Source of the DNA: an uncultured Oscillospiraceae bacterium | GTDB lineage: Bacteria > Bacillota > Clostridia > Oscillospirales > Oscillospiraceae | Assembly (NCBI GenBank): GCA_934636655.1 | Contig: CAKUAS010000011.1 | Coordinates: 8,105-72,104 of the forward strand | DNA length: 64,000 nucleotides | Reading direction: 5' to 3' | Part shown: positions 3,949-35,092 of the stretch, in pieces | Layout: each line of letters opens with the position of its first letter | How positions within the stretch are numbered: the first letter of the stretch is position 1 | Program-made: the position numbers and the translations under genes | The notes under the pieces: model-generated | Told to the model about the DNA's origin: nothing | What the model saw: only the letters and a program-made list of their open reading frames with translations | The model's database searches: none

Positions 3949-5703
3949 TTAGCTATCTACCGAAGCTATTACTTTGCCTGCATCAAGGCTGAGCACTTTC
4001 ATGCCGCTCATATCCGCAACATAGACGCTGTCTCCCACATACACGGCGCGCGCCTGAGATAGTTCCTCGTCAAGCGGTATCTCGACAGTCTGTATGAAAC
4101 CATTTTCATCACTGTAAGAAAACAGCAGATAACTCGTACCCGTACAGAAGCCAATGATGTTGCGCTCGGGCGATATTAAAAGCGCGGTGTGATCGTAAAG
4201 CGCCTCGGTATAACTGCTCCCGGCAAGATTCTTCGTGTTTTTTACCGTGACATTCGCCTTGTCAGAGGTGTCAAACATCACAAGCTTCAACCCTGTAGCA
4301 ACGCCCGTTTCCTCGTCTGCCTCATTGCCGAGGCCAAAAAGCCTGTCGTCCGACCATGTGTGCAGATAGTCGGAAAAGCCGCTTATCTTGAGTTCGCTCA
4401 GGATCTTCGGGTTTTTCGTATCGGACACGTCGGCGGCAAACAGCGGATCGACCTGACGGAATGTACAGAAATACACAAAATCACCGTCAAAGCGCACGGA
4501 ATACACTCTTTCGCCCTTGGCAAGTCCCTCCACTGAGGATAGTTTATTCAGGCTATCGTCGAGAATATACAGGTTATTTGCCGGTGAGCTGCGCTCGGTA
4601 TCGTATTTATAGCTTTCAAGGTCACGTGCTTCGTCACGGTATACGGTCCAGTAATTTGGCTCATTGGTCGTAACTACTCGCAGAGCGCCGTCATACTCAT
4701 CCATGGAGAACTGGCTGTCAAGATAGCCCTCGACCGTACCCGTGGCCGCAACGGATAGATCGTATACGTTTATTCTTATTATATCCGTGTACTGCTTATC
4801 GGCGTGCTCGGAGACATTATAGATGCTCTCCGTATACGTTTTGAGCTTCTCTTGCTCAAGCCGCCACGCGGCAAGATAGAGGCTGTTCTCGTTCATATAG
4901 GCTGTGCTGCCCGCGCCGAGAACCGAGCGCTGTGTTAAAGCATTGCCGGTCTTAGCGTCATACGCACCTGTGACAACATAGCTTGCTTCGTTGACACAGG
5001 GCATGATGCTTATGCATTGGCTGTCTGCAAGCTTTGCTTCACCGTTGCAGTAAAGCTGCGGAACATAGGTCTTGGGTTCTGTGCGTACGGCGTCACTCAT
5101 AATATAATAGCTTGTCAGAAGATATAGTTTCCCGTCGAAAAGTCTGCTCGTCATGAGCCATCCGTCCTGCCCCGAGGATGCTATGAGCTTTGCGCTTGCG
5201 GGATCTGAGACATCGTAGTAATACACCATTGTGCGTTCGCGGGCATCTTCATACGACACGGCATCGCCGCCGTACACGCTATTTACCGACGCTATCAGCA
5301 TAAGCACACCGTCAAAAACGTATATCCTGCTTACCCACCCGCTTTCCTCGGGCGGCACGACACAGCCGACCTTGCGGCTGTTCTCCCCGGCAGCCTCGTA
5401 TATCGTGACATTTTTACTGTCGAGATAATAAACATATTTGCCGTCGGTCTTTATGGTATCCGCCTCATCGACACCGTCAACCTGTGCGTTTGTTTTCGAG
5501 TGCTCCTCGCTCGTTACCGCAAGCGCGGCATCTGCGCCATCGTTTAAGATATACCTCGCATTTGACCTGTTTTCACTCTGATACTTTTTTACCGCAGCGT
5601 AGACCTCGGAATATCCGCTCGCCTTTTTCTGCTTTGCCGTGCATGCGCACGCAGAAAGCGCGATAGCAATACACAGCGAAATTGCAAGAAGTTTTTTCAT
5701 CAT
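3949..5703 (-). CDS. beta-propeller domain-containing lipoprotein (Beta_propel family), function unknown
   Basis: 584 aa. Signal peptide plus lipobox (LSACAC). The motif NAQVDGVDEADTIKTDGKYVYYL is typical of the clostridial/archaeal secreted beta-propeller family. Confidence 0.7.
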   Translation of the reverse strand: MMKKLLAISLCIAIALSACACTAKQKKASGYSEVYAAVKKYQSENRSNARYILNDGADAALAVTSEEHSKTNAQVDGVDEADTIKTDGKYVYYLDSKNVTIYEAAGENSRKVGCVVPPEESGWVSRIYVFDGVLMLIASVNSVYGGDAVSYEDARERTMVYYYDVSDPASAKLIASSGQDGWLMTSRLFDGKLYLLTSYYIMSDAVRTEPKTYVPQLYCNGEAKLADSQCISIMPCVNEASYVVTGAYDAKTGNALTQRSVLGAGSTAYMNENSLYLAAWRLEQEKLKTYTESIYNVSEHADKQYTDIIRINVYDLSVAATGTVEGYLDSQFSMDEYDGALRVVTTNEPNYWTVYRDEARDLESYKYDTERSSPANNLYILDDSLNKLSSVEGLAKGERVYSVRFDGDFVYFCTFRQVDPLFAADVSDTKNPKILSELKISGFSDYLHTWSDDRLFGLGNEADEETGVATGLKLVMFDTSDKANVTVKNTKNLAGSSYTEALYDHTALLISPERNIIGFCTGTSYLLFSYSDENGFIQTVEIPLDEELSQARAVYVGDSVYVADMSGMKVLSLDAGKVIASVDS

Positions 5704-5849
5704 CTACTTCCTCCCGTCAGCTTAGTATTGTAATTATGACGCTGCGCAATACCAAAATGTTTCGTAAATGTGAAAAAAGGCGCGCCGCAGTTGAGCGGCG
5801 CAACATAGTGATAAGTCGGTTTTGAGCGGCTCTTTTCCGACCATACTTC

Positions 5850-5899
5850 AAAAAAAAATCTCGGTAATACACAAAGTATTACCGAGATTTTGTTATTTT
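5850..5899. terminator. bidirectional intrinsic terminator
   Basis: 15-bp perfect stem aaatctcggtaatac / gtattaccgagattt (5856-5870 and 5876-5890), with an A-run upstream and a T-rich run downstream. Confidence 0.75.
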
Positions 5900-6097
5900 G
5901 CCTGAGCGAAAAATATCACTCTCAAAACTGCGATGCACACTGTAAAATTGGATTTTGTTCTGTGGCAAGGCAAAAAGCGCAGGAATAATGGCGATATATT
6001 TCGAGCATTTTTAACGCCGCCACGGGGCAAAAGGCTTTTTACTGGGCGGCTTAGCCCTATGTCGCACCACCCTTAGCGGCGTCTTTTTGTATTATTG

Positions 6098-28071: not shown

Positions 28072-29129
28072 AAATTTTGATTGCAATGAGCGGCGGCGTT
28101 GATTCCAGCGTCGCCGCAAAGCTTTTGTGCGACATGGGTAACGAGTGTATAGGCTGCACGATGAAGCTTTTTGATAACTGCGACGCGGGGCTTTCGCGCA
28201 GCAAAACCTGCTGCAGCCTCGACGATGTTGAGGACGCGCGCAGCGTGGCATTCTCGCTCGGCATGCGCTATTATGTGTTCAATTTCAAGGACGATTTCCG
28301 CGAGAAGGTAATAAAAAAGTTTGCCTCCGCCTATTTTGCGGGGCAAACACCAAATCCGTGCATCGACTGCAATCGGTATATGAAATTCGATAAGCTGTAC
28401 GAGCGCGCAAGACTCCTCGGCTGCGACAAAATCGCGACGGGGCACTACGCCCGCATAGAGTTTGACGGCAAAAACTATATTCTCAAAAAGGCGCTGGACA
28501 AATCGAAGGATCAGAGCTATGTGCTTTACATGCTCACGCAGGAGCAGCTCGCGCACACCGTGTTCCCTCTCGGCGAGTTTTCCAAGAGTAAAACCCGTGC
28601 CATTGCAGAAGCATCGGGACTTGGTAATGCACACAAGCCGGATAGTCAGGATATATGCTTCGTGCCGGACGGAGACTACGCTACCGCTATCGAGCGCCTT
28701 ACCGGTAAGACGGCCGCACCGGGCAATTTCATCGATGCGGATGGCAACATTATCGGCATACATCGCGGCATCACGCACTACACGGTCGGTCAGCACCGCG
28801 GTTTAGGGCTTTCACTCCCCGAGCGGCGCTATGTCTGCAAAATCGACGCGAAGAGCGGAACCGTTACCCTCGGAGGGAATGACGAGTTATATTCGCGCGA
28901 AGTTCGCGTCAGCGATTTTAATTGGATAAGCGGTCAGGTTCCGACAGGATCGATACGCTGCACAGCAAAGATCCGCTACCGGCAACCGGAGCAGCCTGCC
29001 ACGGTTACGCCTGTAGGCGAAGATGAAGTTGTAATACTTTTTAACGAGCCGCAGCGCGCCGTCACGCCCGGCCAGTCGGCCGTATTGTATGACGGTGATA
29101 TTGTACTCGGCGGCGGTCAGATAACGTAA
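28068..29129 (+). CDS. mnmA: tRNA 2-thiouridine(34) synthase MnmA
   Basis: The N-terminus MKILIAMSGGVDSSV is a PP-loop, and the catalytic-Cys context CIDCN is present. The start at 28068 is coupled to the HD gene. Confidence 0.95.
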   Translation: MKILIAMSGGVDSSVAAKLLCDMGNECIGCTMKLFDNCDAGLSRSKTCCSLDDVEDARSVAFSLGMRYYVFNFKDDFREKVIKKFASAYFAGQTPNPCIDCNRYMKFDKLYERARLLGCDKIATGHYARIEFDGKNYILKKALDKSKDQSYVLYMLTQEQLAHTVFPLGEFSKSKTRAIAEASGLGNAHKPDSQDICFVPDGDYATAIERLTGKTAAPGNFIDADGNIIGIHRGITHYTVGQHRGLGLSLPERRYVCKIDAKSGTVTLGGNDELYSREVRVSDFNWISGQVPTGSIRCTAKIRYRQPEQPATVTPVGEDEVVILFNEPQRAVTPGQSAVLYDGDIVLGGGQIT

Positions 29130-29542
29130 TCGCCGCCGTGCGGCGCGTTCATGAGGTCGGCAAGCGTTATTCCCGAAAAATAATCGCGAGTGAGATCGTA
29201 ATAGCCCTCCCACACAGACAGCGTTCGGCACTCGGCCGCGCGATGGCAGGGCGGCGCGTTATCCTGAAGACATGACACCGGCGCGAGGTCGCCCTCGGCG
29301 AGCTTGAGAATTTCCCAAAGCGTGTACTGCTCTGGAGATCGTGTAAGCCTGTAGCCGCCTCCAATACCGTGGACACTGGCAATAAGACCTGCGGACTTAA
29401 GCGATGGCATGATCTTTTCAATATATTTGAGCGATATCTCCTGCCGGGCGGCGACCTCCTTCATGGGGATGTAGCTGCCGTTGTTGTGCTCGGCAAGATC
29501 GAGCAGTATGCGTATTGCATAACGTCCTTTTGTTGATATCAT
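29117..29542 (-). CDS. Rrf2-family transcriptional regulator (IscR/CymR-like, three-Cys cluster motif)
   Basis: MISTKGRYAIRILLDL is the Rrf2 wHTH N-terminus. A C-x7-C-x5-C motif (CLQDNAPPCHRAAEC) is present. The ATG at 29542 lies 6 nt after GAGGTG. The 3' end overlaps mnmA by 13 nt in convergent orientation. Confidence 0.85.
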   Translation of the reverse strand: MISTKGRYAIRILLDLAEHNNGSYIPMKEVAARQEISLKYIEKIMPSLKSAGLIASVHGIGGGYRLTRSPEQYTLWEILKLAEGDLAPVSCLQDNAPPCHRAAECRTLSVWEGYYDLTRDYFSGITLADLMNAPHGGDYVI

Positions 29543-29608
29543 GTGATTCACCTCTTAGATATATTATACAACCAATCCCGTAGGTAAATCAACATTTATT
29601 TTATGTGC

Positions 29609-29638
29609 AAAAAAGGCAGCCGAACGGCTGCCTTTTAT
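29609..29638. terminator. bidirectional terminator ending the radical-enzyme operon
   Basis: Stem ggcagccg / cggctgcc with a 2-nt loop, flanked by AAAAA and TTTT. Confidence 0.7.
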
Positions 29639-29741: not shown

Positions 29742-30536
29742 TTACTTCTTTGCAAGACCCTTCTGGCGAGCATACTCTGCTGCGCCGAGTGCGCCCATGA
29801 GCTGCGGGTCGGTCTTCAGGTTGACAACCTTCAGCTTCAGAACGTGCTCTATTGCTTCCTTCAGACCGTCGTTCTTTGCGCAGCCACCGGTAAGGGTGAT
29901 GCTGTCGGTAGCGCCGGCCTTCTTGGCCATAACGAAGCAGCGCTTTGCAACTGCCATCTCAACGCCTGCTGCGATCTCGTCCATGGGCTTGCCTTCGCCG
30001 ACCAGGGTGATGACCTCGGACTCTGCGAAAACGGTGCACTGTGCGGTGATGGGGATGACGTTCTTTGCGGTCAGAGCCAGCTTCGAGAACTCGGGAAGGC
30101 TCATCTCGAAAGAGCGTGCCATTGCCTCGAAGAAGCGGCCGGTACCTGCTGCGCACTTATCGTTCATTGCGAAGTTCTTTACGGTGCCGTCGGTGTCAAC
30201 GGAGATGCCCTTGACGTCCTGGCCGCCGATGTCGATGATTGCCTTGACGGAAGGATCGGTGACGTGTACGCCCATTGCGTGGCAGCTTATCTCGGAGATG
30301 TTCTCATCTGCGAAGGGGACCTTGTTACGGCCGTAGCCGGTACCGATGAGGTACTCGAGATCCTTCGAGCTCTTCAGGCCTGCCTTCTCGCAGACTTCTG
30401 CCATTGCCGCTACTGCGGATGCCTCGGAATTGATCTTGCTGCGGATGGTGGTGTCTGCTACCATCTTGCCGTTCTCATCGAGTATTACTGCCTTTGTGTA
30501 GGTCGAGCCTACGTCACAACCGCCAAAATATTTCAT
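29742..30536 (-). CDS. acyl-CoA dehydratase activase (BcrA/BcrD/HgdC-type ATPase)
   Basis: MKYFGGCDVGSTYTKAV is an ASKHA phosphate-1 motif. The cluster-bridging Cys contexts EISCHAMG and NDKCAAGTGRFFE match HgdC/HadI. GGAGG lies 8 nt before the ATG at 30536. Confidence 0.9.
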   Translation of the reverse strand: MKYFGGCDVGSTYTKAVILDENGKMVADTTIRSKINSEASAVAAMAEVCEKAGLKSSKDLEYLIGTGYGRNKVPFADENISEISCHAMGVHVTDPSVKAIIDIGGQDVKGISVDTDGTVKNFAMNDKCAAGTGRFFEAMARSFEMSLPEFSKLALTAKNVIPITAQCTVFAESEVITLVGEGKPMDEIAAGVEMAVAKRCFVMAKKAGATDSITLTGGCAKNDGLKEAIEHVLKLKVVNLKTDPQLMGALGAAEYARQKGLAKK

Positions 30537-30585
30537 TAGTGTTGCCTCCAATAAATATTTATTTAACTATTAAAATTCGTTGTTA

Positions 30586-30615
30586 TGCCAACTCTCCGTT
30601 GCCGGAGAGTTGGCA
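30586..30615 (-). other. 13-bp intercistronic hairpin upstream of the activase gene
   Basis: tgccaactctccg (30586-30598), loop ttgc, cggagagttggca (30603-30615). On the mRNA strand it is followed by AT-rich sequence without a clean U-tract. Confidence 0.6.
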
Positions 30616-30646
30616 GTTGGTTTAAATTGTGTTTCTGATATCGGGA

Positions 30647-30859
30647 TCAGACTTCGTCGTACTTGTAGTCGGGGAACTTATCCATGTCGTACGGCGTCTT
30701 GAGCATATCCTTGCGCTCCATATTGTCATAGTGGTTCTTAACAAACGGCTCAAAGACGTTGAACAGGAACTTGCCGTCGAGGTCAAAGAAAAATACGGCG
30801 AACAGTGCTGCATAGGCAACTGCGCCTACGCCAAGTGCTCTTTTAACAAACTTTTTCAT
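30647..30859 (-). CDS. 70-aa single-TM microprotein embedded in the radical-enzyme operon
   Basis: A strong GGGAGGAG RBS lies 8 nt upstream of the ATG and starts right after the stop of the 535-aa gene. The sequence MKKFVKRALGVGAVAYAALFAVFFFDL is a TM helix, followed by a charged, aromatic-rich tail (KNHYDNMERKDMLKTPYDMDKFPDYKYDEV). Confidence 0.65.
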   Translation of the reverse strand: MKKFVKRALGVGAVAYAALFAVFFFDLDGKFLFNVFEPFVKNHYDNMERKDMLKTPYDMDKFPDYKYDEV

Positions 30860-30877
30860 ATTCTCTGCTCCTCCCTA

Positions 30878-32485
30878 TTACCAGGTCATGTCGTCGTCGA
30901 GCTCGAGGAGAGAAGGATCCAGAGGCTCTTCGTGCATAACGGTGGTCATGTAGTCGTTTATGAGACGACGGATCTCGGCACGGGAAACAGTGCGGCTGTC
31001 GGGCAGTGCGTGAGGGATCCAGAATGCGGGGATATTTCTGTCACGGAACTCATCCTCGAACAGACCGTGTACGCCCTGCATGCCCTTGCACTGGAGCTGA
31101 TCGTACATCGCGACCATGTCGCAGTTGAAGCGCTCCATGTAGTCCCACAGCTCAAAGATGTGGTGCATGCCGCCGACTGCCATACGGCGCATCGGAGCCC
31201 ACATGTGGTACTGTGCGACGTCCTCGAGCATGTTCTCGTAGCTGTCGGTGCGGATGGTCATATCGAACATGAGAGAGTCCATGTTGATGATGACATTCAG
31301 ACCCCAGGTGTTGTAAGCCCAGGTGCACCAGTTGGAGTAGTACAGAGGTGCGCAGGACCATGCGATAACTCTGTGGCGGGTGTTGGGGAAGGTGTTGATC
31401 TTATTGCGTACGCACTTCTCCATAATGGGACGTACCTTGCCGTCGACCTCGTGCCAGATGGGCAGATCGCCGAACTGGGACTGATAGATGCGGTACAGTG
31501 CCTGTGCAACGCCGTTGATGGGGTAGGAATTGGTCTTTGCCGCGACCTCCCACTTCTCCCACTCGAACTTCTGCAGCTCATTCTGGCGCTCGATGCACTC
31601 GCACATAACGTCAAAATTCATGGGAACGCCGGTCTGATCCTCGATGAACTTCCAGCACTTCTCAATATCCTTCTGAACGAACTTGTTTGCGAGGGGATCG
31701 TCAAAGATCATGGGCATCTGCAGCGCGTACAGAGGCTTGTCGTTGAACCAGTCCTGAAGAATAGCGGTACCGACGGAGCCGTCGCAGGCCTCGTTGCAGG
31801 TTATCATGAACGGGCTGTAGTCAGGAATATCGTCAAGGACGTAGAGGCCGGCCTCGGCCTGGCACATCGGGCAGGGGTCGCCAGGCAGGCCGATGGACTG
31901 AACTGCATCGATGTAGTTATGAACGGTGTGAGAGTTAACGTGGCAGGTGACGAAGTAGGGGATCATCTCCAGAGAGACTGCCTTGAATTTGTCGCTCCAG
32001 CCGTAGAACATACCGCCCCATACGGTCTCCTTCATTGCCATGGTGTGGTACCATGCGTCGTTCTTCTTGCCGCCGTGCAGCTTGGTATCTGCATTGAACA
32101 TGGTCATGAACTGATAGATGGTCGCGTTGACCATTGCGCGATAGTGCCATGCGGAGGCGCGCAAAGCCTCGCCGCGCATGCCCTCGAGGCCGCGGTCGAA
32201 CCAGTGCAGAACGGGCAGATAGGTCTGGCCTACCCAGCGGTAGCGCCAAATGCCCTTTGCAAAGTTGATGAGGCCGCCGTACTTCATTACGTCCATTACC
32301 ATGTGCAGGTAGTTATACATCCAAATGTTATGGAAGTAATAGAAGGTGTCCTTTACGCCGCGCCATTCTCTGTGCTTGTAAAGGCCGGTCTTGGGCAGGT
32401 AGTTATCGCCGAGGCGACGGCCGCCTTCTTCTGCGGTATGGGGCTTGCCATACCAAAAATCTTTTAATGCTTTCTTAAAATCCAT
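30878..32485 (-). CDS. 2-hydroxyacyl-CoA dehydratase / benzoyl-CoA reductase superfamily subunit, atypical long form (535 aa)
   Basis: The core region carries Cys motifs CPMCQAEAG, CNEACDGS and WSCAPLYY, as in HgdA/HadB-like subunits. It also has about 170 extra N-terminal residues rich in W/Y/H/M. AGGAGGG RBS. The ATG lies 2 nt after the stop of the upstream subunit gene. Confidence 0.8.
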   Translation of the reverse strand: MDFKKALKDFWYGKPHTAEEGGRRLGDNYLPKTGLYKHREWRGVKDTFYYFHNIWMYNYLHMVMDVMKYGGLINFAKGIWRYRWVGQTYLPVLHWFDRGLEGMRGEALRASAWHYRAMVNATIYQFMTMFNADTKLHGGKKNDAWYHTMAMKETVWGGMFYGWSDKFKAVSLEMIPYFVTCHVNSHTVHNYIDAVQSIGLPGDPCPMCQAEAGLYVLDDIPDYSPFMITCNEACDGSVGTAILQDWFNDKPLYALQMPMIFDDPLANKFVQKDIEKCWKFIEDQTGVPMNFDVMCECIERQNELQKFEWEKWEVAAKTNSYPINGVAQALYRIYQSQFGDLPIWHEVDGKVRPIMEKCVRNKINTFPNTRHRVIAWSCAPLYYSNWCTWAYNTWGLNVIINMDSLMFDMTIRTDSYENMLEDVAQYHMWAPMRRMAVGGMHHIFELWDYMERFNCDMVAMYDQLQCKGMQGVHGLFEDEFRDRNIPAFWIPHALPDSRTVSRAEIRRLINDYMTTVMHEEPLDPSLLELDDDMTW

Positions 32486-32487
32486 AA

Positions 32488-33699
32488 TTACTTGCCCTCC
32501 TGAATCTTCTTGATCTCGACAGATTCAACGAATGCCTGGAAGCGGGTACGGAGCTGACCGGATGCGGTGTTTATGTACTCCTTCTCGATCGAGCATACGG
32601 GGATACCGAAGTCGCGCTTCATAACGATGGTGTCGATGACGCGCTCATAGCTCCAGTATTCGCAGAACTTATTGGAGCAAACGATAAGGCCGTCTGCGTT
32701 GTATTCCTTGACGAGGTCTGCCAGGCGCTGCTTTCTTGCACGCATCTCGTCCTGAGGCATGAAGCGCGGGCAGTTGGAGGTCTTAAGATAATGCTTTGCG
32801 ATAGCGTAGAGGGGGTCCTCGCCCTTTTCAACGACTATCGGCTGGCGGGTCTCGACTGCGCCGTAGCAGTAACGGTCGCAAACGACCTCTGCGCCGCAGC
32901 TCTCAACGAGCTTGGTGAAGTCGGGATCGTCGTTCTCGCTTCCCGCGAGCACGACCTTGCAGCGGAACGGCCACTTCTCGTCGGGCTTACGGGTCTTCAT
33001 TTCCTTCGCGGTCTCGCGCAGGTAGGGAAGGATGAGGTACTTCGGGCATACCAGCGATACGAGCTGGATGACATGGAACTCATAGCCGGTGATGGTGGGA
33101 TTATCGAGCTTGCGGTAATCGCCTATCTCGTTTATGAGCTTGCAGACCTCATTGTGCTGCTTGATGGCTTCCTTGAGCGCCTTGTCGGAAACATCGATTC
33201 CGAGATTGTCATGCAGCGTGGTCAGGACATGGGACCTGAGCTGATCGCGGAAGTACTCATAGTCGTTCTCGGTGTTTTTGAAGGGAACGTCGGTGAACTC
33301 GCAGAAGAAACGGTCGTTCTGGATGACATTCATGTCCTTGACGGAGTCAAGATGCTTGGGCTTGATGTGCTCCTGGAAGCGGCAGGTGACGGTGCATGTC
33401 TCGGTCGCCATCTGTGCGTCGAGGAAGTTGAAGCCGCCTTCGAGCGCGCGCTCGAAAAGGCTGCGGCCGTAGTGACATACGCGAGCGGACATGTAGTAGG
33501 TCGCAATGTCGGGTGAGCTGCAACGCGGTGCTCTCAGACGAACAGAGAAGCAGCCGGGCAGGTCGAGAAGTACTTCAGGCATGAAGTAGCAGGTATAGCC
33601 GATGGCGAATTTGCCCTCTGCCTTTGCCTGCTGAACCAGCTCGTTGTTGGCTTCCTGAAGCAGGTTCTCAAAGTAAATCAGGTGCTTAAGGTCTCTCAC
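32488..33699 (-). CDS. 2-hydroxyacyl-CoA dehydratase family subunit (403 aa)
   Basis: The N-terminal pattern AKAEGKFAIGYTCYFMPEVLL is typical of HgdB/HadC/BcrC-type subunits. Further Cys motifs TETCTVTC and CSNKFCEYW. GTG start with a G-rich RBS. Confidence 0.8.
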   Translation of the reverse strand: MRDLKHLIYFENLLQEANNELVQQAKAEGKFAIGYTCYFMPEVLLDLPGCFSVRLRAPRCSSPDIATYYMSARVCHYGRSLFERALEGGFNFLDAQMATETCTVTCRFQEHIKPKHLDSVKDMNVIQNDRFFCEFTDVPFKNTENDYEYFRDQLRSHVLTTLHDNLGIDVSDKALKEAIKQHNEVCKLINEIGDYRKLDNPTITGYEFHVIQLVSLVCPKYLILPYLRETAKEMKTRKPDEKWPFRCKVVLAGSENDDPDFTKLVESCGAEVVCDRYCYGAVETRQPIVVEKGEDPLYAIAKHYLKTSNCPRFMPQDEMRARKQRLADLVKEYNADGLIVCSNKFCEYWSYERVIDTIVMKRDFGIPVCSIEKEYINTASGQLRTRFQAFVESVEIKKIQEGK

Positions 33700-33768
33700 G
33701 GATAACCCCCCATAAAAAATATTTTGCTGAGCTCACAAGGGCATACTTTGCCCTTTATGTACTCATCT

Positions 33769-33797
33769 ATTTTAACAAACTGTCATATTATTGTCAA
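33769..33797 (-). promoter_or_regulatory. sigma-A type promoter of the radical-enzyme operon
   Basis: On the reverse strand: TTGACA (RC of 33792-33797), 17 nt, TAAAAT (RC of 33769-33774). Confidence 0.6.
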
Positions 33798-33872
33798 TTA
33801 CATTTTGTCGGATAAATCAGCATTTTGTGCAAATTTCGCCCCATTTTTGTTAGACATTTATATATAACGTGT

Positions 33873-35039
33873 CTAAATCGTGAAGTTATTCAAAAAATTT
33901 TGAATAGTTAATGAACACGCTGTGCAGCTACCCTGTATCATCTCCGGGCTTCCGCCGCCACGGCCCGAGATCCCCTCATTTATGCTTTTTGCCGCCTTTC
34001 GGAGATCAACACTGCGGCTTCCGATGATATAGCGATAGCCGCTCTCATCGCTTCCGGAGAACACCGCGGCGATACCGGAACACTTTTTCACGCACTCGTT
34101 CACGAGCGCGCGGAGCGACGGCTCGTCCAAAACGCTGTCGAAAAGGCAGATGTTTCCCTCTGTAGGCTCGACGGCATCGGCTTTCATCCTTGCAAAAGCT
34201 CCGCAGAGCTCTGCCGAGCGAGCCTTGAGCTTTTCGTTTTCCGCCATAAGTCTGCGTACTGCAGCGGCAGTCTCGTTCCGCTTTGCCGACAGGAGCATGG
34301 ATATCTCCGTATTGTTGGCACTGAGTACGACCTCATTGTCGTAAGCATCAAGACCGCAGAGCATAGTTATGCGCACACCCTCTCCCCCTCTGCGGCGGCG
34401 CTCGGACGTGAGTATGCGCACTGTTCCGACCTCCGCGGTAGAGCTTACGTGCGGCGCGCAGCATGCGCAGATATCGGTGTTTTCGATCTCTACGATGCGC
34501 ACATTTTCAGTGAGATCGAGCTTACTGCGGTACTCGAGCGTTTTTAACACATCCTCGGGCGGAAATGTCGCTGTGACCTTGTAGTTTGCAGCAACGGCAT
34601 AGTTTGCCTCGCGTTCGATCTCCAAAAGCTGCTCCCAACTTAGCTCTCCGTCGAAATCTATAGTTACAACGTCGCTGCCCATATGGAAACCAACATTGTT
34701 GTACCCATATTTCTTATGCACGAGCCCCGACACAATATGCTCGCCGGAGTGATTTTGCATTCTTCTGAAGCGCGTTTCCCAATCGATCGCGCAATCGTAA
34801 GTGCATCCTATCTCAAGCTGTTGGTTTACATAATGTAAAACCTCGTTGTTTTTTTCGTGCGTATCAAAAACATGCACATCACCTATCACTCCGCTGTCAC
34901 CGAGTTGGCCGCCGCCCTCGGGAAAAAACGCTGTGCGGTCAAGGGTCACGAGGTATCGCTCTCCGTCCTTTTCGCAGGAGGTGACGGTCGCCGCGAAGGT
35001 CTTCATGTGGCTGTCGATATAATAAAGCTTTTCAGTCAT
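33873..35039 (-). CDS. alaX: alanyl-tRNA editing protein AlaX-L (AlaRS editing domain plus DHHA1-like domain)
   Basis: Zinc and editing motifs HSGEHIVSG and CCAPHV. The N-terminus resembles the AlaRS second-additional domain. The ATG at 35039 lies 8 nt after GGAG. Confidence 0.8.
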   Translation of the reverse strand: MTEKLYYIDSHMKTFAATVTSCEKDGERYLVTLDRTAFFPEGGGQLGDSGVIGDVHVFDTHEKNNEVLHYVNQQLEIGCTYDCAIDWETRFRRMQNHSGEHIVSGLVHKKYGYNNVGFHMGSDVVTIDFDGELSWEQLLEIEREANYAVAANYKVTATFPPEDVLKTLEYRSKLDLTENVRIVEIENTDICACCAPHVSSTAEVGTVRILTSERRRRGGEGVRITMLCGLDAYDNEVVLSANNTEISMLLSAKRNETAAAVRRLMAENEKLKARSAELCGAFARMKADAVEPTEGNICLFDSVLDEPSLRALVNECVKKCSGIAAVFSGSDESGYRYIIGSRSVDLRKAAKSINEGISGRGGGSPEMIQGSCTACSLTIQNFLNNFTI

Positions 35040-35092
35040 TACGCTCACTCCGTTTTATTTTTTTATGATAATAACATTTTATTGGGCATTAT

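Follow-up and report, generated by a model that had tools for sequence, protein, structure and literature searches.

The four-gene module at positions 29742-33797 of a 64-kb stretch of DNA from an uncultured Oscillospiraceae bacterium (contig CAKUAS010000011.1; the whole stretch is called the window here) belongs to the superfamily of benzoyl-coenzyme A (CoA) reductases (BCR), 2-hydroxyacyl-CoA dehydratases (HAD) and double-cubane cluster proteins (DCCP). We give slightly better than even chances to the view that it is a functional operon for a heterodimeric, ATP-driven, low-potential Fe-S reductase with an electron path of the BzdNO type, probably located at or near the membrane and possibly acting on a CoA-free substrate. 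All four genes lie on the minus strand and encode a beta subunit of 403 aa with a GTG start (32488-33699), a long alpha subunit of 535 aa that starts 2 nt past the beta stop codon (30878-32485), a microprotein of 70 aa with a single transmembrane (TM) segment (30647-30859) and an activase of 264 aa (29742-30536). These open reading frames (ORFs) are present as described in an earlier reading made from the letters of the DNA alone (the sequence-only reading), except that the activase start was moved from TTG 30551 to ATG 30536, which has GGAGG upstream and agrees with the 264 aa of an independent gene caller. Hidden Markov model searches bore out its family assignments, with both large proteins in PF06050 and the fourth gene product in PF01869. 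That reading had proposed a radical dehydratase or reductase; the ATP-activated BCR/HAD/DCCP module stands, and the double-cubane cysteines of beta refine the choice toward a reductase.

In the path that we propose, reduced ferredoxin or flavodoxin would donate an electron to the bridging [4Fe-4S] cluster of a homodimeric activase, which would hydrolyse ATP and inject the electron into beta. There, an [8Fe-9S] double-cubane cluster, as in BzdN, could store more than one electron, and the electron would pass on to an open-site, three-cysteine [4Fe-4S] cluster in alpha, where the substrate would be reduced by radical chemistry. The cluster types are predicted from the alignment of ligands, and the direction of electron flow is likewise a prediction. 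The predicted cluster complement copies that of BzdNO and not that of HadBC, which makes a redox-neutral dehydration less likely than a reduction with net consumption of ATP.

Beta subunit and its predicted double-cubane cluster

Beta matched PF06050 (HGD-D; gathering score 28.4 bits) with 297 bits. The closest solved relative was BzdN (8s02_B, 1.4e-22), followed by HadC (7.9e-15) and DCCP (6e-13), and the best curated family was the double_cubane model NF040772 (1.1e-39), with 136.6 bits against a cut-off of 350. In the reference structure, the [8Fe-9S] cluster of BzdN is held by Cys36, Cys73, Cys100, Cys263, Cys293 and Cys327, and the catalytic [4Fe-4S] cluster of BzdO by Cys95, Cys128 and Cys380 (PMC11971306). 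In the HMMER alignment, C37, C75, C102, C278, C310 and C346 of beta fall on the six BzdN ligands in this order, whereas HadC in the same output has Pro at the position of C37 and Ala at that of C278. These six cysteines were invariant in an alignment of eight beta subunits with 36-85% identity, as opposed to none of the 11 other cysteines. We predict beta to be an [8Fe-9S] double-cubane electron-storage subunit, BzdN/DCCP-like rather than HgdB/HadC-like as it had first been called. The six invariant ligands tilt the choice between dehydratase and reductase to the latter.

The long alpha subunit

Alpha matched PF06050 with 99.7 bits over residues 186-498 only, and no further Pfam domain was found in it at E <= 0.1. 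Residues 1-185 consist to 31% of W, Y, F, H and M, compared with 21% in the rest of alpha and 15% in beta, which upholds the W/Y/H/M-rich N terminus noticed earlier. No TM segment was found in alpha (KD19 maximum 0.86). The N-terminal surplus had been put at about 170 residues; measured against BzdO, it amounts to about 100-110 residues (C205 versus C95, C466 versus C380), and 170-185 residues are just the part not covered by Pfam. The AlphaFold2 model of alpha, built from 39 sequences, reached a pLDDT of 89.2 and a pTM of 0.89 and showed a helical bundle at residues 44-132 ahead of the first strand at residue 148. Foldseek matched this model equally well to BzdO, DCCP, HadB and MbdO (E ~1e-11, probability 1.00, 12-17% identity), with target-normalised TM-scores of 0.7-0.8 (0.80-0.82 for HadB) and query-normalised scores of ~0.6. 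Because the latter reach only ~0.6, the N-terminal extension is considered to have no solved counterpart.

C205, C234 and C466 of alpha align exactly with C95, C128 and C380 of BzdO and with the cysteines of HadB, and they are the only family-conserved cysteines of alpha. Among the motifs singled out in the sequence-only reading, the first Cys of CPMCQ (C205) and the second Cys of CNEACDG (C234) are conserved, but the Cys of WSCAP is not. His131 of BzdO aligns with Ser237 of alpha, and the aligned stretch begins past Trp46 and Glu65 of BzdO. The alpha core would accordingly resemble these proteins in carrying a three-cysteine catalytic [4Fe-4S] site with one open iron site, a prediction drawn from the ligand alignment.

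Furthermore, the long form of alpha is a family trait. The N-terminal signature REWRG-x-KDT...W plus RYRW and the acidic C-terminal tail EPLDPSLL-x-(F/L)DD-xxx-W persist in the alpha family at identities as low as 22-30%. Among the 120 best homologues, lengths range over 531-644 aa and lie at 531-578 aa in nearly all cases; query coverage is 97-100% and identity 76-99%. When 1.84 billion representatives were searched exhaustively, only 503 alpha relatives appeared at E <= 0.001, including proteins of 482-536 aa with 29-35% identity that align from about residue 20 on; canonical dehydratase subunits were absent from the strong alpha matches listed. The family comprises at least 1,256 protein clusters and has the N-terminal helical domain and the acidic tail throughout, with the microprotein present in both the orthologous loci (group A) and group B. 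As had been supposed, this set lies outside the characterised clades: no NCBIfam equivalog cut-off was approached, and the alpha-family profile was about equally distant from BzdO (2.9e-23), HadB (3e-21), MbdO (3.8e-17) and DCCP (1.4e-16). The alpha family is a deep, uncharacterised branch of the superfamily. The subunit is thus long in comparison with the characterised systems, as noted earlier, but not atypical within its own family, where this length is routine.

Activase

The activase, an 'archerase' of the HgdC/HadI/MbdQ type, matched PF01869 (BcrAD_BadFG) with 191.7 bits and TIGR00241 with 217 bits, above the cut-off of 125.4 bits. Its matches in the Protein Data Bank were MbdQ (1e-61), HadI (1e-57), HgdC (3e-55) and DCCP-R (1e-38), and the motifs NDKCAAGTGRF (C128) and CTVFAESEV (C167) are conserved in the alignments with MbdQ and HadI. 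By comparison with Cys127 and Cys166 of HgdC, we take C128 and C167 to be the ligands of the bridging [4Fe-4S] cluster. The operon has a single activase gene.

Eighty orthologous loci (L001-L080) were compared with the window module, and only 26 of their contigs continue at least 1.4 kb past alpha. Most of the metagenome and MAG contigs stop a few hundred bases or less past alpha, in the activase gene or close to it; examples are L002, L004, L007, L009, L013, L014 and L016, as well as L117. A repeat or mobile-element boundary was considered for these breaks and rejected, since they are better explained by the cross-species protein identity of 88-99%. They are probably an assembly artefact, arising because the gene is nearly identical between co-occurring species, and as a result the activase is often missing from binned genomes.

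TM microprotein

The microprotein contains a single hydrophobic helix, with the KD19 maximum of 2.03 falling at residues 9-27. It lies directly downstream of alpha in all 74 orthologous loci that extend far enough. Across 69 unique sequences the helix varies, but the juxtamembrane motif FFFDLDGK.LF.VVEPF.K.HYD.M.R.D hardly changes. Subfamilies only 30-35% identical in alpha, group-B cassettes included, have homologous ORFs (53-76 aa) with a TM helix and the motif (F/W)(N/D)LD.KL...HYD, placed either past alpha or past the activase gene. The survey of orthologue neighbourhoods showed the 70-aa gene to co-occur with the long alpha N terminus, and the microprotein is a genuine, conserved, subunit-like component. 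The aromatic-rich N-terminal domain, the acidic tail and the obligatory microprotein together suggest that the complex may be held, or have a partner, at the membrane.

Operon layout and regulatory elements

The promoter and the hairpin terminator proposed in the sequence-only reading were both recovered by consensus scan. The sigma-70-type promoter (33769-33797, minus strand) has the form TTGACA-17-TAAAAT with a TG-extended -10 element and matched 11 of 12 consensus positions. Its -35 and extended -10 elements are nearly invariant among orthologous loci of other species, down to ~79% beta identity, which argues against a mere chance match. Directly 3' of the predicted transcription start lies a 5' untranslated stem-loop (33737-33755, minus strand), read from the sequence as AAGGGCA-AAGTA-TGCCCTT and followed by a G-rich Shine-Dalgarno sequence and the GTG start, an arrangement kept across species. 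Compensatory pairs occur in other species (AAGGGTA/TACCCTT, CAGGGCG/CGCCTTG, GAGATG/CATCTC and GGGCGTG/CACGCCC), and the stem-loop is probably a stabiliser of the mRNA 5' end. No Rfam family matched it. A riboswitch or other known RNA in the leader and spacers was rejected, as the Rfam search at E <= 1 gave one chance small-RNA match over the terminator.

A second conserved element was found in the spacer between the microprotein and activase genes, a 13-bp GC-rich hairpin with no U-tract (30586-30615, minus strand). It is kept with compensatory substitutions in all loci at >=87% alpha identity. In more distant species, this spacer is either 16-60 nt long without a hairpin or 180-340 nt long with repeated GC-rich hairpins, which are REP-like (L042, L045, L053 and L061). 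The hairpin at 30586-30615 may uncouple the dosage of the activase from that of the upstream genes. The terminator (29611-29636) is a hairpin of AAAAGGCAGCCG-TTCG-CGGCTGCCTTTT with A- and T-run flanks and is bidirectional. Two contigs with an identical alpha protein, L081 and L082, differ in gene content right past the terminator, indicating that the module ends there.

Some 55 nt upstream of the -35 element, a perfect inverted repeat, TTAGACA-N13-TGTCTAA (33850-33876), runs over the stop codon of the AlaX-like gene. The alaX-linked loci of other species have kept this repeat, in some cases in imperfect form, and it may act as an operator or as a weak terminator of alaX. On the other side of the module, an Rrf2-family gene (29117-29551, minus strand) encodes three clustered cysteines (CLQDNAPPCHRAAEC) and has its own promoter-like site (29592-29563). 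It was set aside as probably not a regulator of the module, because it is replaced in L082 despite the identical alpha and adjoins the module in close relatives only. A plus-strand ORF of 612 aa (30629-32467), antisense to alpha and longer than it, is a by-product of strong GC3 bias and not a gene; similar long antisense ORFs opposite beta and the activase gene were dismissed as by-products of the same codon bias.

Conservation and expression

Beta lies upstream of alpha in 79 of 79 orthologous loci. Where alpha is <85% identical, the median identities are 78% for alpha, 82% for beta and 89% for the activase, compared with 55% for the AlaX-like neighbour. The module is under strong purifying selection, as judged from these protein identities. 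Codon bias was ranked over 39 window genes by the effective number of codons (Nc): the activase (31.0), alpha (32.6) and beta (35.9) genes ranked 2nd, 3rd and 5th, and acetate kinase had an Nc of 29.3. The codon bias and the conservation indicate that the operon is probably highly expressed. Together with the conserved promoter, 5' stem-loop, Shine-Dalgarno sequence and intercistronic hairpin, the codon bias suggests expression that would be both strong and differential. The identical alpha protein occurs on human-gut metagenome contigs, Hadza samples included, and the closest genome records are metagenome-assembled genomes (MAGs) of uncultured Clostridiales/Oscillospiraceae.

Neighbouring genes

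The absence of CoA-handling genes claimed for the 64 kb held for the genes tested. Pfam scans of 30 other genes of the window, which covered all but a few small or ambiguous ORFs, found no gene for CoA transfer, CoA ligation, acyl-CoA dehydrogenation or an electron-transferring flavoprotein (ETF). The scanned genes include a branched-chain amino-acid ABC transporter, acetate kinase, cardiolipin synthase, Obg, glycogen genes, FeoB, Znu and Hsp33. No CoA-handling gene is annotated in L081 among the genes corresponding to window positions ~22.4-44 kb.

The CoA question was extended to about 180 group A/B loci across species, and no CoA-pathway gene recurred as a neighbour in them. In Pfam scans of the neighbourhoods of 12 orthologous loci (65 proteins) and 10 group-B loci (80 proteins), together 145 proteins of 22 loci, no CoA-related family among the 25 commonest listed occurred in two or more loci. 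In addition, a screen of 80 group-B metagenome loci with probes for acyl-CoA dehydrogenase (ACAD), ETF, 3-hydroxyacyl-CoA dehydrogenase (3HCDH) and others gave no hit. Genes of the D-2-hydroxyacid dehydrogenase family, which is common, were found in 2 of the 12 group-A and 2 of the 10 group-B neighbourhoods. Beside the orthologous module, just one gene is repeatedly conserved, the AlaX-like gene located directly upstream in 48 of 67 loci; all other neighbours vary. The alaX linkage reflects either unusually persistent synteny or a functional link. The AlaX-like gene (33873-35048, minus strand, in the window) encodes tRNA-synt_2c and tRNA_SAD domains, in some loci with DHHA1, and has diverged to ~55% identity. 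Of the term orphan module, the self-contained organisation and the lack of local CoA-handling genes stand; the module is, however, a member of a large family with its own recurrent partners.

Sister cassettes and their partners

These partners are seen in sister cassettes with the order CooC-type ATPase, beta, alpha, activase, small TM ORF and a protein of ~235-244 aa, which were found in Treponema sp. TIM-1, Eubacterium sp., Oscillospiraceae and many gut contigs. The ATPase gene lies directly upstream of beta in group B/C cassettes; the best solved match of its product was CooC1 (3kje, 1.6e-15), and the CxC metal motif is aligned and invariant. The 235-244-aa protein matched PF03598/CdhC in 4 of 5 cassettes sampled and resembles, weakly, residues ~330-469 of acetyl-CoA synthase (ACS); we call it mini-ACS-like. 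It ends in an invariant C-x2-C-x5-C-EVEGM. The small ORF and mini-ACS-like genes follow the activase gene immediately in the orthologues L046, L047 and L059, and in other orthologues the pair is shared with a group-B cassette next to them. The window lacks CooC, mini-ACS, HypA and IsrA-like genes, and no CooC or mini-ACS genes were found locally in its closest relatives. A literature search found no published account of the alpha family or of the CooC/mini-ACS/microprotein association, and the YjiL/YjiM/archerase literature held nothing that bears on the alpha family.

The shared arrangement is exemplified by L069 (3084-11797), where a complete group-B cassette (CooC, beta', alpha' of 595 aa, activase, small ORF and mini-ACS-like) is followed directly by group-A beta, alpha and microprotein genes without an activase of their own; tandem group-B/group-A arrangements were also found in L056, L072, L073 and L077. 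Two pairs of contigs, L028/L011 and L031/L010, share MAG bins, giving two module copies per bin (L028 and L031, 5547-11825). One copy is alaX-linked, has an activase and shows 93% alpha identity; the other (80%) stands behind IsrA-like and HypA genes and lacks the activase. Two module copies with one activase suggest paralogous modules that share it, and the window organism may hold a second copy.

Some orthologous modules stand beside a gene for a GltD/NfnB-like Fe-S flavoprotein of ~920-944 aa, which may donate electrons to the enzyme or be an unrelated neighbour. Where HypA occurs beside a module (L028, L031, L054, L094 and L097), it always follows this flavoprotein. The flavoprotein fits the published family of IsrA, a putative isoprene reductase, in which HypA is a neighbour in 73% of 988 homologues. 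HypA was therefore rejected as a maturation factor of the HGD-D enzyme and re-attributed to the IsrA-like flavoprotein. Units of IsrA-like and HypA genes recur beside HGD-D modules of two subfamilies (also in L054, 15650-18636), and L094 and L097 have the order TetR, IsrA-like protein of 924 aa, HypA, beta, alpha, small ORF, MarR and ABC exporters. In Treponema sp. TIM-1 (L092), an extra stand-alone gene of the long alpha type (4477-6036, 519 aa) lies upstream of CooC, and an OYE/Pyr_redox gene resembling 2,4-dienoyl-CoA reductase follows the mini-ACS-like gene; OYE-type genes also follow rearranged cassettes of the L108 type.

Alternative explanations

Several observations weigh against a BzdNO-type reductase of a CoA-free substrate. 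The cluster types are read from ligand alignment only, and the double_cubane score of beta is 136.6 bits versus the 350 required. The single activase gene implies a homodimer, as in dehydratases and DCCP and unlike class I BCR, and its product is hardly closer to MbdQ than to HadI and HgdC. High expression is deduced from codon bias alone. The charge distribution of the microprotein predicts, by the positive-inside rule, an N-in/C-out topology, which would put its conserved motif outside the cell and make docking on a cytoplasmic enzyme awkward. The mini-ACS-like partner resembles the A2 domain of ACS, which is the acetyl-CoA-binding domain (10.1101/2024.08.05.606187). A full CooC-beta-alpha-activase-small ORF-mini-ACS cassette in group C, P0199 (locus L096, 2866-16432), lies between ACAD and ETFba genes on one side and a FixC-like gene and two 3HCDH genes on the other, and another relative adjoins a weak match to 4HBT thioesterase and an MFS transporter. 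The L096 context, the 4HBT match and the mini-ACS likeness together make a thioester substrate, even dehydratase chemistry, possible. No clear acyl-CoA context other than L096 was found for the alpha family; an acetoacetate-decarboxylase-family gene also flanks the L096 cassette, which has two small ORFs of 61 and 69 aa. The substrate of the window enzyme may be CoA-free, and a thioester is possible too.

The P0199 context, the 4HBT match and the mini-ACS likeness speak for an acyl- or aryl-CoA-dependent enzyme, for example a hydroxyacyl-CoA dehydratase, of a split fermentation pathway. Its CoA-transferase or ligase, 2-hydroxyacid dehydrogenase and ACAD/ETF would lie elsewhere in the genome, and its activase would act only catalytically. 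The homodimeric activase (1e-57 to HadI, 3e-55 to HgdC), the high codon bias typical of bulk fermentation enzymes and the D-2-hydroxyacid dehydrogenase genes in a few neighbourhoods fit such a pathway as well. However, beta keeps the six double-cubane ligands that are lost in HadC, and it scored 76 bits with the HadC equivalog (NF052456), far from the cut-off of 700. The acyl-CoA context of P0199 belongs to a relative with an alpha just 22% identical to that of the window, as opposed to none of the 80 group-B loci with ACAD, ETF or 3HCDH, no recurrent CoA family among the 145 neighbour proteins and none in the window genes tested. The mini-ACS-like protein was rejected as proof of CoA binding, because a conserved Arg aligns, by our own count of positions, with the Trp of ACS that we take to stack on the adenine of CoA. 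We regard a CoA-dependent enzyme of a split pathway, the main rival, as unlikely, though it deserves to be taken seriously.

A small inorganic or C1/C2 molecule as substrate, reduced in the manner of DCCP and perhaps at a heterometal site matured by the CooC-type and related nickel factors of sister cassettes, has a small chance in our view. DCCP reduces acetylene, azide and hydrazine. The best NCBIfam score of beta, 1.1e-39 with double_cubane, points in this direction, as do the CooC-type ATPase with its CxC motif directly upstream of beta in groups B and C, the invariant C-x2-C-x5-C of the mini-ACS-like partner and the lack of recurrent organic-substrate pathway genes nearby. Yet the module encodes a heterodimer whose alpha has lost the distal subcluster ligands, like the organic-substrate-binding BzdO and HadB; the CooC and mini-ACS genes are locally absent from the window and its closest relatives, and the nearby HypA genes belong with the IsrA-like oxidoreductase. 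Smaller still is the chance of a membrane-lipid reductase similar to PlsA/PlsR, the anaerobic plasmalogen synthase, or the related glycerol ester reductase. It would reduce an ester or some other group of a lipid embedded in the membrane, to which the microprotein and the aromatic N-terminal domain would give access. PlsA/PlsR are described as BCR/HAD-like enzymes for which the sn-1 ester of phospholipids is the group reduced. The single-TM microprotein, which is obligatory, the W-, Y-, F-, H- and M-rich alpha N-domain and the lack of soluble-substrate pathway genes nearby would suit such a role. The likeness to PlsA was drawn from published description and not from sequence, however, and alpha shows neither an extra Pfam domain (E <= 0.1) nor a TM segment. 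The predicted topology places the microprotein motif outside the cell, so very high a codon bias is unusual for lipid tailoring, and genes of lipid synthesis are not consistently found next to the module (in the window, cls lies ~14 kb away).

The BzdNO-type reductase can also be extended to a bolder form: a membrane-tethered two-electron reductase of a CoA-free, possibly hydrophobic compound that would serve as a major electron sink of Oscillospiraceae. The module would then represent, in abundance in the human gut, an unrecognised class of archerase-driven enzymes, and the CooC-type nickel-insertion ATPase and mini-ACS-like protein of sister cassettes would point to a heterometallic or otherwise new cofactor. 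Taken as a whole, this extension is rather improbable, and we offer it as speculation.

Significance

The superfamily carries out some of the hardest reductions in biology, such as dearomatisation, ketyl-radical dehydration and the reduction of acetylene or azide. The branch described here is widespread in human-gut and rumen Clostridia, with single 90% clusters of up to ~5,000 member sequences, and its database names are all generic. It joins a double-cubane subunit of the reductase type to an alpha of new architecture and to a membrane microprotein that is obligatory. For the CooC-type and ACS-like partners of the sister cassettes, we found no earlier link to the superfamily in the literature. 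Knowledge of the substrate would reveal a new reaction by which gut Oscillospiraceae consume electrons, probably one of quantitative importance, and could extend the known chemistry and cofactor maturation of ATP-driven Fe-S enzymes.

Comparison with known systems

The module works most like a class I benzoyl-CoA reductase of the Bzd type. It shares with BzdNO and MbdNO the heterodimer of two HGD-D subunits, a beta nearest to BzdN with the six [8Fe-9S] ligands kept, an alpha whose profile matches BzdO best and keeps the three [4Fe-4S] ligands, and an activase nearest to MbdQ. However, class I benzoyl-CoA reductases use a heterodimeric ATPase, the P/Q pair of BzdPQ and MbdPQ, as opposed to the one activase gene of the module. 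The scores are far below the equivalog cut-offs (82.3 versus 453.8 bits for bzdN, 171 versus 380 for bzdQ). The module differs further in the extra N-terminal domain of alpha (~110 aa) with the conserved C-terminal tail, in the obligatory TM microprotein and in the Ser237 of alpha at the position of BzdO His131, and no ferredoxin, CoA-ligase or ring-cleavage genes are present nearby among the window genes tested. The single activase, the scores and the context therefore place it outside this type.

With HadBC, HgdAB, FldBC and LcdAB, the module shares the alpha/beta HGD-D heterodimer and the single homodimeric activase, and alpha resembles HadB in its profile match, its three aligned cysteines and its fold. 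The scores, the beta-ligand pattern and the context nevertheless separate it from the dehydratases: beta has the full six-cysteine double-cubane set that HadC lacks, alpha matches no dehydratase model of NCBIfam, no CoA-transferase, 2-hydroxyacid dehydrogenase or ACAD/ETF gene is adjacent, and the long alpha N-domain and the microprotein are additions. DCCP/DCCP-R and YjiM/YjiL of Escherichia coli are similar in their ATP-driven homodimeric reductase partner and in the double_cubane model that fits beta best. DCCP, however, is a homodimer with a seven-cysteine motif and the double-cubane cluster as its active site, whereas the module encodes a heterodimer with a separate three-cysteine catalytic subunit. 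Alpha keeps three cysteines and reached 35.4 bits with the double_cubane model, also well below the cut-off, and the activase is much nearer to HadI and MbdQ (1e-57 to 1e-61) than to DCCP-R (1e-38); subunit composition and score thus exclude the module from the DCCP group. PlsA/PlsR, compared by published description only, belong to the same superfamily and act on a non-CoA substrate embedded in the membrane, which is a precedent for membrane-linked chemistry, but they are described as multidomain or fused proteins, in contrast to the set of 403, 535 and 70 aa found here. With two HGD-D large subunits and a cognate activase, the module belongs to an uncharacterised branch within the known BCR/HAD/DCCP superfamily.

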